A DNA stretch of 61,595 bases, filler included, from Candidatus Omnitrophota bacterium (GTDB lineage Bacteria > Omnitrophota > Gorgyraeia > Zapsychrales > JBDRMG01): assembly GCA_043812495.1 (NCBI GenBank). It is 5 parts of 5 records of this genome, joined end to end, with 100 filler letters (N's around TTAATTAATTAA, not from the genome) between each part and the next. Parts side by side here need not be neighbours in the genome. Positions count along the whole stretch, not along the records: positions 1 to 16,661 come from JBDRMG010000050.1; positions 16,762 to 27,507 come from JBDRMG010000051.1; positions 27,608 to 32,415 come from JBDRMG010000052.1; positions 32,516 to 48,757 come from JBDRMG010000054.1; 1 more part is not named here. One strand, 5' to 3'. The position numbers were made by a program, and so were the translations under genes. This document shows, piece after piece, positions 15,312 to 48,757 of this stretch. The number at the start of each line of letters is the position of its first letter. Positions within the stretch are counted from its first letter, which is position 1. A model generated the notes under the pieces. It did not search any database, was not told the DNA's origin, and saw nothing but the letters and a program-made list of their open reading frames with translations.

Positions 15312-15439
15312 AGAAAATTCTGGTGTTCTACTTCACCTCGCTTCTTGCATTCTGCAAGAATGCAGCGGGGCTTCGTAGAACATTCTGCCTGGCTTGTTTC
15401 TTCGAAGTCCGCCACTGATTCAATGGCTGACGGAGAAGA

Positions 15440-15504
15440 ATGGACCCGACCCCGCCGTCTGCCTGTCGGCAGACAGGCGGCGGGGTGGCCTCTTCCATGT
15501 CAAG
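15440..15504 (-). pseudogene. tRNA-Val 3' half with T-arm replaced by a palindromic insert
   Basis: Matches tRNA-Val (TGGACCCGAC...GTGGCCTCTTCCATGTCAAG on + strand) except that AAGACTCGAACTT is replaced by CCCGCCGTCTGCCTGTCGGCAGACAGGCGGCGGG. Confidence 0.8.
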
Positions 15505-15591
15505 CTCGTCACGCGTAAACGCGTGCCGAAGTCTCGTCCCGATAAATCGGGACAAAACAATTCTGAATACTATAAGGGTATTCTATATTTC

Positions 15592-15637
15592 TGGTGGACT
15601 CAGGGGGGCTCGAACCTCCGACCTCTTCCATGTCAAG
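15592..15637 (-). pseudogene. 3' half of a second tRNA-Val(GAC) with encoded CCA
   Basis: CTTGACATGGAAGAGGTCGGAGGTTCGAGCCCCCCTGAGTCCACCA; acceptor strand pairs with the 5' half at 15852-15876. Confidence 0.8.
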
Positions 15638-15734
15638 CCCCGATTTTGCTTTTATTGACACTATGGAAATCGGGGTGCCGGCTTCCACAATTTAAAAATA
15701 GAAGAGCCGGCAAAGCGCTTTGAGTCAATTACAA

Positions 15735-15808
15735 TGGACCCGACAAGACTCGAACTTGTGGCCTCTTCCATGTCAAGGAAGCGCTCTAACCAACTGAGCT
15801 ACGGGTCC
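15735..15808 (-). tRNA. tRNA-Val(GAC)
   Basis: Full cloverleaf GGACCCG...CTTCC-TTGACAT-GGAAG...CGGGTCCA; CCA not encoded. Confidence 0.95.
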
Positions 15809-15851
15809 AAAATTCTTTCCTTATATCAACTTATTTTATCGAAGAGCAACT

Positions 15852-46071: not shown

Positions 46072-46101
46072 GTCAACAACAACGAAAGAGGTCATATTTT
46101 C

Positions 46102-48552
46102 ATGAAAGATATAACCATCAAAGAGAAAATCATTCCCGTCTCCATTGAAGACGAGATGAAAAATTCCTATCTCTCGTACGCGATGAGCGTTATTGTCAGC
46201 CGCGCTCTTCCGGATGTGCGCGACGGATTAAAGCCCGTGCACAGACGTATTTTGTATGCGATGAAAGATCTGAGCTTGGAGCACAGTAAGCCCTACAAAA
46301 AAAGCGCGCGCATCGTGGGTGAGGTGCTCGGTAAATACCATCCTCACGGCGATATGGCCGTCTACGACGCCATCGTGCGCATGGTTCAGGATTTTTCCTT
46401 ACGATACCCTTTAATCGACGGTCAGGGCAACTTCGGCTCGATCGACGGCGACGCGGCCGCGGCCATGCGATATACCGAAGTACGCATGGCGTCCGTATCT
46501 TCGCAGATGCTTGCAGACATTGAAAAAGATACGGTTTATTTTTCTCCTAATTTTGACGCGACCTTGCAAGAGCCGGAGATTCTGCCGGCTACGATGCCGA
46601 ATCTCTTGGTTAACGGCTCCAGCGGCATCGCGGTCGGGATGGCCACAAACATGGCGCCGCACAATATGACCGAAATCGTAGACGGGATCACCTATTTGGT
46701 CGATAAACCGGACGCCGAAATAAAAGACCTGATGAAATACGTGAAAGGGCCGGATTTTCCGACCGCCGGCATTATTTGCGGCCGGGAAGGCATTCTGGAC
46801 GCCTACAACACGGGCCGCGGAAAATTGACTCTGCGCGCCAAAGCCGCGATCGAACGCCAGAAAGGCAACAAAGACACCATCGTTGTTTCTGAATTGCCCT
46901 ATCAGGTCAATAAGGCCAATCTGATTGAGGCGATTGCCGCCCTTGTTCAAGACAAAAAGGTCGACGGCATTACCGATATCCGCGATGAAAGCGATAAAGA
47001 CGGCGTGCGCATGGTGATTGAATTGCGTCGCGATGTTGAACCGCAAATCATTCTCAATTATCTCTACAAGCATACTCAGCTGGAAACAACCTTCGGCATC
47101 ATCAATCTTGCGCTCGTGAACCAAAGTCCGCGCGTTTTGACCCTCAAACAGTTGATGGAGTTATATATCGGCCATCGGCGCATCATCATCCGTCGACGCA
47201 CGCAGTTTGATTTAAACAAGGCCTTGCACCGCGCCCATATTCTCGAGGGCTTGCGCATCGCGCTTAAATATATCAATCAAATCGTGAAGACCATCAAATC
47301 TTCAAAAACGACACAAGACGCCAAAAAGGCCCTCATGAAGAAATTCGGCTTAAGCGAGATTCAGTCCCAGGCAATTCTGGAAATGCAATTACAGCGCCTG
47401 ACCGCTCTCGAACAAAGCAAGCTCGAAGCCGAATACAAAGAACTTTTGAAAACTATCGATCATCTCAACGCGATCTTGGCTTCGCCGAAAAAGATTGACG
47501 AAATTATCAAAGAAGAACTTCAGGTGGTTAAGAAAAAATACGGAGATGAGCGCCGCACGGAAATCGCGGCCAAGGCCGAAGAGATCGAGATCGAGGATTT
47601 GATTGCCGAAGAAGATATGGTGATTACGGTCACCAATTCGGGTTATATCAAGCGTCTGGCCGTGGATGCGTACCGTCGGCAAAAACGTGGCGGCAAAGGC
47701 GTCACCGGCATGGGCACCAATGAGGAAGACTTTATAAGCCATTTGTTTATCGCCTCATCCAAAGACTATCTTTTGATCTTTTCCAATAAGGGCATTGTGC
47801 GCTGGCTCAAAGTTTACGAAATTCCGATTGCCTCGCGCGCGGCCAAAGGCAAGGCCATCGTCAATCTTTTATCCATCGGCAAAGACGAATATATCAGCTC
47901 CATCGTCGCTGCGAAAGAATTCACCGACGACCAATTCGTTGTCATGGGAACGGCCCAAGGAAATATCAAGAAAACAAAATTGTCAGCATTTGGCAATCCG
48001 CGCAAAGCTGGCATCGTCGGCATTGGCCTGGACAAGGACGATCGATTGATCGGGACGGCCATCAGCAACGGCAATTATGAAATTTTGCTGGCCACACGCG
48101 AAGGAAAGGCCTTGCGGTTTTCGGAAAAAAATATCCGCGACATGGGCCGGGGCGCCAAGGGTGTGCGCGGCATTAGGCTCGGAAAAAAAGATGAAGTTGT
48201 TGGGATGCAGGTTTTTCCGCCGGATATTTCCAAAACCGGCAGCACTCTTTTAACGGCGACTTCGCTTGGGTTTGCCAAACGAACGGAATTTGACGAATAC
48301 CGGATTCAATCCCGGGGAGGTAAAGGCATTATCAACGTCAAAGTCGGCGACAAAACAGGCGAGGTGGTCGGCATTGTGGCTGTCACGGATGACGACGAGA
48401 TTATGGCGATTACCAAAAACGCCATGATTGTGCGCTGCCGCGTCAAAGATATCCGCCAAACCGGCCGGAACACCCAGGGCGTGAGGCTGCTGTCTTTGGA
48501 GAAGAGCGATCACGTCAGTTCCGTGGCGTATATCGCGGCAAAGGAAGAATAG
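46102..48552 (+). CDS. gyrA: DNA gyrase subunit A
   Basis: [15 protein letters not shown], GyrA box QKRGGKG. Confidence 0.98.
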
Positions 48553-48617
48553 AAAACAAATTTTCTTTACGAAAATAAATTTTTAAGTATAATAAAAAAA
48601 CTTATTTGCAACCTTTC

Positions 48618-48700
48618 GACCCCATCGTCTAGCCTGGTCAGGACACCCCGCCTGTTCCGCCATAGGCGGAACAAGACGGCGGGGCAAGCGGGTTCAAATC
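48618..48700 (+). pseudogene. tRNA-Glu-like fragment with anticodon arm replaced by a palindrome
   Basis: GACCCCATCGTCTAGCCTGGTCAGGACACC-[CCGCCTGTTCCGCC..GGCGGAACA..GGCGG]-GCGGGTTCAAATC; no 3' acceptor strand; TATAAT upstream. Confidence 0.7.
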
Positions 48701-48708
48701 TTTGAAAT

Positions 48709-48757
48709 ATGTTTTATGTGTATATCTTAGAAAGCCTAAAAGATGGCAGGCATTATA
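48709..48757 (+). CDS. Start of a small GIY-YIG nuclease (cut by contig end)
   Basis: MFYVYILESLKDGRHY, the same N-terminal pattern as the other three. Confidence 0.75.

Follow-up and report, generated by a model that had tools for sequence, protein, structure and literature searches.

Solo GIY-YIG nuclease genes beside tRNA genes and lineage-specific hairpins in an Omnitrophota genome: likely minimal mobile elements

The window analysed here, a stretch of 61,595 nucleotides from a Candidatus Omnitrophota bacterium (assembly GCA_043812495.1; host genome 1.94 Mb, 90% complete), shows four of about nine lineages of solo GIY-YIG nuclease genes, which stand at tRNA genes beside hairpins specific to each lineage. 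We consider it likely, with a probability of roughly 60%, that these are minimal mobile elements moving by the mechanism proposed below. The window consists of contigs C50, C51, C52, C54 and C61 with N linkers between them, and distances across 16662, 27508, 32416 and 48758 are therefore meaningless. The end of C50 (16613-16661, 49 bp) is identical to the start of C54 (32516-32564), and this restores the gene order tRNA-Cys, tRNA-Leu(TAA), GIY-YIG gene 16242, tRNA-Val, thrS. After the join, the 16242 gene lies directly 3' of the intact tRNA-Leu(TAA) (32544..32629, minus strand), its true upstream neighbour, and the relatives G001 and G008 have the same Cys-Leu-Val cluster with a GIY-YIG gene at the equivalent place. 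The present analysis contributes occupancy counts for tRNA sites, a view of the genes resolved by lineage, a negative result for the dominant hairpin, and a polarised replacement of tRNA-Cys.

The genome has 16 matches to PF01541, one of them of UvrC length, leaving 15 small genes plus a stub. A preliminary description of this DNA counted four small GIY-YIG open reading frames in the window. Three are complete, namely 16242..16547 on the minus strand (lineage E, 101 aa, 3' of tRNA-Leu/Val; E 2e-20), 19678..20085 on the plus strand (lineage C, in the order tadA-gene-tRNA-Ser, 135 aa with the frame continuing into downstream hairpins; E 9e-17) and 24785..25144 on the plus strand (lineage C2, 119 aa, its frame crossing the tRNA-Asn 5' exon; E 3e-16). 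The fourth does start at 48709, but only its first 16 codons precede the contig end (48709..48757, plus); it matches lineage A by sequence, and the tRNA-Glu(TTC) itself is unassembled. Across the whole genome, an intact tRNA or tmRNA is found no further than 500 bp from 10 of the 15 small genes, but from only 47 of 1418 other (proxy) genes (Fisher p 1e-11), bearing out the proposed association with tRNAs beyond chance. Adding the cases with fragments of Leu, Pro and Glu tRNAs brings this to 13/16 genes, all on the strand of the tRNA. The comparison with other genomes covers the listed matches from 30 relatives of the same order, with 14 weak matches standing outside the set; here a tRNA or tmRNA lies within 500 bp for 58 of 109 small genes, on the same strand in all 58 cases. 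Lineage-A-like loci in GTDB, from many phyla, numbered 80, or 73 after removal of 7 that repeated earlier loci; 70/73 are within 500 bp of a tRNA, again all on its strand, and a CCGCC-type hairpin lies upstream of the gene in 42. Among C2-like metagenome loci 46/80 are near a tRNA, all on the same strand.

The window proteins are single-domain GIY-YIG proteins of less than 150 aa with the catalytic Tyr, Tyr and Glu, consisting of the catalytic domain only, without a DNA-binding extension. An alignment of 73 intact proteins shows no variation at Y5, Y16, G18, R27, H31 and E63, and Y6, Y17 and E64 of SsnA, as given in the account of that enzyme (PMC11893778), are matched at the corresponding invariant positions. 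The minimal fold is closest to 1zg2, 1ywl and Slx1 (E 1e-14 for 16242 and 0.002 for 24785), the closest solved relative of 16242 being UPF0213 protein BH0048. The model for 24785 has a pLDDT of 95.6, with a confidently predicted GIY-YIG fold over residues 1-82, and its top seven structural neighbours are UPF0213 and Slx1 chains, at E 0.002-0.05 and none below 0.001. NCBIfam returned no family for the three complete window proteins at E 1e-5. In-frame stops occur in 11 of 124 small genes, and at the lineage A loci L027, L016, L040 and L046 the GIY-YIG reading frame enters an intact tRNA-Glu, ending in or near a stop codon within the D arm. Lineage A and 24785 were queried against viral collections, giving one locus in IMG/VR and one weak phage record (40%), respectively.

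The four window genes fall in four groups of a protein tree, from which UvrC-length frames, a 592-aa frame (L005), one partial match and one fragment of less than 50 aa had been removed. Group E (16242) is found 3' of Leu and Val tRNAs, group C (19678) in the order tadA-gene-Ser, group C2 (24785) 5' of Asn and Val, and group A (the stub) 5' of Glu and Asp. Elsewhere in the genome there are groups B, D and G, an inverted-repeat group (C5), an Ssn-like gene (C64) and a repeat-free host-like gene (C38). Lineage C adjoins tadA in four families. The paralogues within the genome are only 18-58% identical, and 13 of 15 are closer to a gene from a different genome than to any of these paralogues, with one tied, as expected if they arrived independently, which the preliminary description had proposed. 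The pairing of lineage and flank can be tested between genomes. With tRNA sequence masked, the number of upstream 7-mers shared rises from 0.53 at below 30% protein identity to 5.6 above 60% (0/1000 permutations), and when only pairs at different tRNAs are used it is 0.56 below 40% identity and 3.04 at 50% or above (0/2000 permutations). In addition, CCCGCC-nnn-GGCGGG hairpins have a median of 14 in the 9 relatives with lineage A and 2 in the 21 without (p 0.002, or p 0.02 once the 2 flanking copies are subtracted). Two identical GIY-YIG cassettes occur 45 kb apart in G001 (L003 and L031, on G001:C12), with different outer flanks and no called tRNA; from the sequences, we take them as a sign of recent movement. 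There are also two identical gene copies in tandem in G004.

The same tRNA sites are filled in some relatives and empty in most, confirming that empty alleles exist. At tRNA-Glu(TTC), a gene is present in 5 of the 28 loci with a called tRNA, with two more genomes at contig edges; at Asp(GTC) it lies directly 5' in 6/18 loci, at Ser(GCT) it lies 5' in 3/26, and at Asn(GTT) it is present in 4/18. The closest relative, G001, of the same family, is empty at the Glu, Asp, Ser and Asn sites. Occupants also differ, since the Asp site holds lineages A, B and F in different genomes, the Glu site A and F, and the Ser site C and F. The spare upstream copy of tRNA-Asp keeps the native leader (47/71 columns matching G001, versus 34/73), and therefore it is the original 5' end that was broken, with the gene standing behind the tRNA promoter. 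The intact Glu gene of G010 has the odd allele, its flanking fragments the common one. Gene-less fold-back hairpins with 3-nt loops are found directly before Glu and Ser genes at L119, L126, L130, L162 and L169, the right arm in each being the leader and first bases of the tRNA itself. It is worth adding that six relatives have tRNA-Thr(TGT/CGT) genes with introns of 272-585 nt (L204-L209, L213).

Scars at tRNA genes are widespread in the genome, and they have the polarity that was originally described. Counted with intact tRNAs masked, 13 of 42 tRNAs have a fragment of their own 5' half upstream and 11 have their own 3' half downstream (18/42 with either), and none has a fragment on the wrong side only. 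As a control, the sequences of other tRNAs match 101 of 1568 flank pairs (6.4%). Apart from the Cys and Val loci described below and Glu in G010, the duplicates of tRNA ends are local and exact, sometimes including more than 20 nt of host leader; their lengths vary from about 14 to 70 bp, and they are found 5' as well as 3'. The Val, Arg and Cys tRNAs had been presented as scarred without a nuclease. The scars are present at all three, but Cys, Leu and Val form one cluster with 16242 and so are not nuclease-free.

One case is tRNA-Cys (minus strand), where the ancestral gene is split into a 3' half (32911..32950) and a 5' half (33107..33138) by a 156-bp hairpin-bounded insert in the anticodon loop (32951..33106), which carries an intact second allele, tRNA-Cys(GCA), at 32985-33056. 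Joined together, the halves are the intact G001 gene with 0/72 differences, and there is no target duplication beyond 1-2 ambiguous bases. The inner allele differs at 5 positions, four of which are a paired change in the acceptor stem, in a form found in other relatives. The insert carries a tRNA and no GIY-YIG gene. This locus shows the survival trick: an ancestral allele is split by an insert bearing a different, intact one.

At tRNA-Val, also on the minus strand, there are three nested layers and two alleles. The innermost is the intact tRNA-Val(GAC) (15734..15809). The middle layer is a different allele, with a spare 3' part (15592..15636) whose acceptor strand pairs with the spare 5' part at 15846..15876. 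The outer layer has a spare 3' part from position 33 (15441..15503), in which the T arm has been swapped for a nested CCCCGCC hairpin, and a spare 5' part (positions 1-32) in three pieces (15916..16089), broken at the D stem and D loop by hairpin inserts of lineage-C and lineage-B type. Behind the outermost 3' fragment lies a gene-less hairpin element, assigned to the lineage-D type by sequence and motif class, with a nested CCGCCA-type hairpin (15328..15440).

Two of the genes were said to lie within exact duplications of a tRNA end, a claim that holds, with 71 bp at Leu and 30 bp at Asn. The Leu repeat is direct and on the minus strand; copy 2 (16150..16220), comprising 21 nt of the tRNA-Leu 3' end and a 50-nt lineage-E hairpin leader, is 100% identical to copy 1 (16591..16661), the last 49 bp of which overlap the C54 start (3' end of tRNA-Leu(TAA)). 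At Asn (plus strand), a spare tRNA 5' end (24698..24727) is a 30-bp exact duplicate of 25031-25060. The stub at 48709 follows a hairpin-disrupted tRNA copy, just as first described: behind the native promoter, the spare 5' part of tRNA-Glu(TTC) (48618..48700, plus) has its anticodon arm exchanged for a CCCCGCC..GGCGGGG hairpin, whose loop itself contains a second hairpin. No tRNA duplication was found at the window Ser gene, only hairpins, with lineage-C modules (19975..20141, plus) directly before the intact tRNA-Ser(GCT) (20142..20229, plus).

Elements occur both with and without a gene. Directly after tRNA-Ser(GCT) is a gene-less lineage-D element (20230..20327, plus), with both ends in common with a gene-bearing element behind tRNA-Ser(GGA) on contig C4. 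The intact tRNA-Arg(ACG) (17286..17361, plus) is followed by stacked gene-less hairpin elements (17362..17894, plus), each ending in a spare tRNA-Arg 3' end; of these, 17576-17705 matches a gene-bearing element behind tRNA-Arg(ACG) in G030 (95/144 columns), and 17709-17894 is 89% identical to an element behind tRNA-Arg(TCG) on C18. That C18 locus was considered as a 3' end transferred from Arg(ACG), an arrangement indistinguishable from a split original gene, and was set aside. The non-tRNA inverted-repeat family (C5), named for the contig with its gene-bearing form, has a gene-less copy at 34107..34215 (plus), with 2 bases where the gene would be and a CCGCCA hairpin in its first loop, and other copies near 21885 and 24550. 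Arms of this family are dispersed in the genome (86 by a one-arm pattern, only 2 by a closed-form pattern).

The dominant hairpin, CCGCCA..TGGCGG, behaves differently from what was first suggested. The genome holds 146 matches to CCGCCA-n2-16-TGGCGG, against 1-4 in 5 shuffles, and copy numbers are 139 here and 0-8 in the 30 relatives, so that among the relatives compared the burst is in this genome only. It had been described as interleaved with tRNAs, but of 130 non-coding copies only 16 have one within 600 bp (background 5.5%). Many occupy arms of the C5 family or the middle of stems resembling terminators, and 47 of 116 cores with nine-base loops are identical. A perfect outer stem of 6 bp or more surrounds 34 of the 116 cores symmetrically, compared to 5.7% with shuffled flanks. 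For 35 of 106 flank pairs there is a paralogue in which the loop is a different one, in some cases of only 3-5 nt, and other hairpins also fill this slot at paralogous sites. From this centring and the alternative loops we conclude that the hairpin targets stem-loop apices of any kind; no target duplication was seen at loop replacements in the paralogous sites compared. Two genes are directly preceded by pairs of CCGCCA hairpins, namely 24785, where a back-to-back pair of CCGC(C/T)A-n7-TGGCGG hairpins occupies 24728..24769 (plus), and the gene on C62. Lineage C2, represented by 24785 and by the C62 copy cut off at a repeat of three contig ends, is the best local candidate for driver of the burst.

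A closer precedent than RAYT is Ssn with its NTS/SRM repeats (cd10448). SsnA binds its own hairpin in single-stranded DNA and cuts just upstream, requiring Y6, Y17 and E64 (PMC11893778), and the authors suggest many co-evolving pairs and an origin resembling insertion sequences (PMC11893778; Chenal et al. 2025). As described there, Ssn has, like the present genes, a single GIY-YIG domain of about 90 aa, the catalytic Tyr, Tyr and Glu, and a flanking hairpin that is also dispersed in the genome. It differs in that here we find tRNA anchoring, partial tRNA duplications, replacement alleles and loop replacement; tRNAs are not mentioned in the main text of PMC11893778. In a tree with 8 NTS/SRM-flanked references, the Ssn clade (SH-aLRT 99) includes five genes of relatives and, from this genome, only C64, which lies outside the window; 16242, 19678, 24785 and lineage A fall outside it. 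No exact SRM was found within 500 bp of the scanned genes, the same pattern having matched two reference loci. The present system works like Ssn/SRM and is not a member of it by clade or motif.

Prokaryotic Slx1-like and UPF0213 proteins (1zg2, 1ywl) have the same minimal fold and are the closest solved relatives by both sequence and structure. They are described as mostly vertically inherited, repair-type genes (Dunin-Horkawicz 2006, PMC1564403), and the available text of that paper has no link to tRNA loci or repeats. Phage T4 SegB is likewise a free-standing GIY-YIG enzyme among tRNA genes that spreads with them (PMC2330249), but it acts by homing on double-stranded phage DNA, whereas the present genes belong to the chromosome, are minimal and linked to hairpins, and hardly occur in the viral collections queried. 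With REP/REPIN sequences and their RAYT (IS200/IS605-type Y1) enzymes, the system shares dispersed short palindromes, dimers, and gene-bearing and gene-less forms. CGTC REPs have been noted to lack a dedicated transposase (Di Nocera 2013, PMC3733652). The analogy with RAYT drawn in the preliminary description holds for architecture and not for chemistry, the partner here being a hydrolytic GIY-YIG nuclease rather than an HUH transposase, and the main hairpin carries no GTAG/CGTC tag. The genome has 7 Y1-transposase matches, flanked by other repeats, one of them with a single CCGCCA hairpin within 300 bp, upstream; no Y1/HUH transposase flanked by the main repeat was found among them. Four are RAYT-like genes with their own inverted flanking repeats (C2:46135, C45:245, C4:1301, C47:52096), and RAYT was rejected as partner of the CCGCCA hairpin on these grounds. 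Elements that target tRNA genes through phage or island integrases also split an essential tRNA and restore it with a copy on the element. Here, by contrast, duplication lengths vary, duplications are both 5' and 3', and whole replacement genes are found. There is no integrase in the cassettes; the 340-450 bp units hold only the GIY-YIG gene, and the serine recombinase at 25620-27290 is outside the Asn unit. Searches of the open literature yielded no description of tRNA-linked solo GIY-YIG cassettes.

We propose, by analogy with Ssn, that each enzyme would recognise its cognate hairpin when the DNA is single-stranded and make a nick next to it. Repair by the host would afterwards place the hairpin in a stem-loop, either alone or together with the gene, or swap loops, with the enzyme as the presumed cause. 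Insertions into tRNA genes would persist because an intact tRNA copy is either duplicated locally or brought along. Spread across species could use tRNA homology as an anchor, one end being homologous and the other a hairpin, plausibly on DNA taken up by transformation. The genes would be read from the tRNA promoter, and tRNA genes would act as a safe harbour for nuclease genes, with small hairpins able to enter any older hairpin. The GIY-YIG genes had previously been put forward as the autonomous partner of the hairpins. The relation between gene-bearing and gene-less forms supports this idea, but not as a single system tied to CCGCCA.

Several observations weigh against this proposal. GIY-YIG enzymes are hydrolytic nucleases, not HUH transposases, and cannot join DNA; the joining step must therefore come from elsewhere and is the weakest step of the mechanism. 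ComEC and DprA are present in the genome, but they are also present in 10-11 of 14 control genomes. The genome has no near-identical pair of genes (maximum 58%), and consequently the genes are not multiplying here now. The number of CCGCCA hairpins does not significantly follow the total number of GIY-YIG genes (rho 0.25, p 0.18, 30 relatives), contrary to the correlation first predicted, nor does it track lineage C2 (1-5 copies with C2 present, 0-8 otherwise), and the motif is upstream of 0/80 C2-like metagenome genes. Each lineage group has a typical flanking hairpin, but the table of motif by lineage was made after viewing the flanks and is to that extent circular; kin are also not independent in any of the cross-genome tests. 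The tree (123 proteins, 87 columns), the product of a quick search, has many open forks, and the lineage count is approximate. Of the small genes in relatives, roughly one in five (24 rows) lacks both tRNA and repeat and resembles an ordinary host gene. Finally, the side of the tRNA is not fixed over a wide range, lineage-A-like genes being upstream of the intact tRNA copy in 50 loci and downstream in 20.

Some of these points would also fit with hairpins being spread by host repair or by another enzyme. The nuclease genes would then be cargo caught in loops, like the spare tRNAs, and their enzymes might cut their hairpins without driving movement. The indifference of the dominant hairpin to gene number and to lineage C2 would then be expected, as would an insert at tRNA-Cys that carries a tRNA and no gene, and the many different inner hairpins that fill the same slot; even for Ssn, mobility is presented in PMC11893778 as a hypothesis. 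Against this are the lineage-specific flanks, which persist across genomes and different tRNAs, the invariance of the catalytic residues, and the other repeats that flank the 7 Y1 matches. We think this explanation rather unlikely. Quite unlikely, in our judgement, is homing without an intron in the manner of SegB, in which an uninterrupted tRNA gene suffers a double-strand cut and the cassette is recombined in, leaving the hairpins as immunity marks or by-products. SegB recognises a T-arm motif of tRNA and spreads itself together with tRNA genes (PMC2330249), replacement alleles do differ from the resident ones (Cys, and Glu in G010), and lineages do prefer particular tRNAs. But the present proteins are single domains of 80-100 aa of the Slx1/UPF0213 type without any DNA-binding extension, an intact target remains beside the gene, and lineages shift between unrelated tRNAs, with the related C5 and C64 lineages having no tRNA at all.

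It is improbable that these are domesticated host genes, serving repair, transformation control or defence and kept in tRNA operons for expression, with the scars reflecting an unrelated instability of tRNA loci. Such genes would be expected to conserve their active sites, as these do; SsnA modulates transformation in Neisseria (PMC11893778), and the position of lineage C behind tadA in four families fits inheritance. On the other hand, most orthologous sites are empty, lineages replace each other, 11/124 genes are broken, and there are copies that share the ends but lack the gene. That the duplications and nested copies are artefacts of assembly at contig ends is highly improbable. In favour of this reading, two of the four window genes are at contig ends, and a search of sequencing runs found none with half of the sequence words of the Asn region and listed no RNA run, contigs of four runs giving only short pieces, none over the gene. 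The copies, however, are not alike in sequence or in what is inserted in them; dozens of separately assembled genomes show the same anatomy, one of them as a complete chromosome record (L234), and the split Cys allele is an exact match to a relative.

The window has other features. A 6S RNA (RF00013) lies at 1598-1750 on the minus strand. Upstream of tRNA-Arg(ACG) is a 140-bp tandem duplication, 95% identical (16901-17125), after which come lineage-B-type hairpins. The tRNA-Asn(GTT) gene (25035..25628, plus) contains a 518-nt group I intron in the anticodon loop (25070-25587; Rfam RF00028 core 25371-25580); the 16 relatives in which tRNA-Asn was called lack it. Group I introns in tRNA-Asn are known from Patescibacteria, although our literature search did not return them. 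Within the intron is a 115-aa stop-to-stop frame (25072-25419) with an HNH-like motif, below the cut-off (PF01844, E 0.005) and with no ATG, GTG or TTG near its start. A large serine recombinase with Resolvase, Recombinase and zinc ribbon domains (25620-27290, minus) ends at the 3' end of tRNA-Asn and is probably a separate integrated element. Three 139-bp sequences are common to 10, 9 and 8 contig ends (including 16762-16901, 48858-48996 and 61458-61595 of the window); these are unassembled multi-copy elements, probably insertion sequences. A fourth repeat, on 3 contig ends, truncates the GIY-YIG gene on C62.

More generally, transposase-free, hairpin-swapping elements driven by minimal GIY-YIG nucleases might possibly form a broad and undescribed class with many co-evolving pairs of enzyme and hairpin, of which Ssn/SRM would be one branch, a suggestion that we make tentatively. 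With similar reserve, such a class would replace apical loops, colonise tRNA genes, and swap an essential tRNA in place for a foreign allele carried as cargo. If this is correct, it would provide a function for a very large family of genes annotated as 'GIY-YIG nuclease family protein', another means, next to RAYT, for short palindromic repeats to spread, and a source of new site-specific nucleases of about 90 aa for single-stranded DNA, outside the Ssn clade. With about nine lineages and their distinguishable hairpins side by side, the genome is a compact system for testing. Transfer RNA alleles would be exchanged without an integrase, and vertical inheritance should not be taken for granted for the number and alleles of tRNAs in such genomes.

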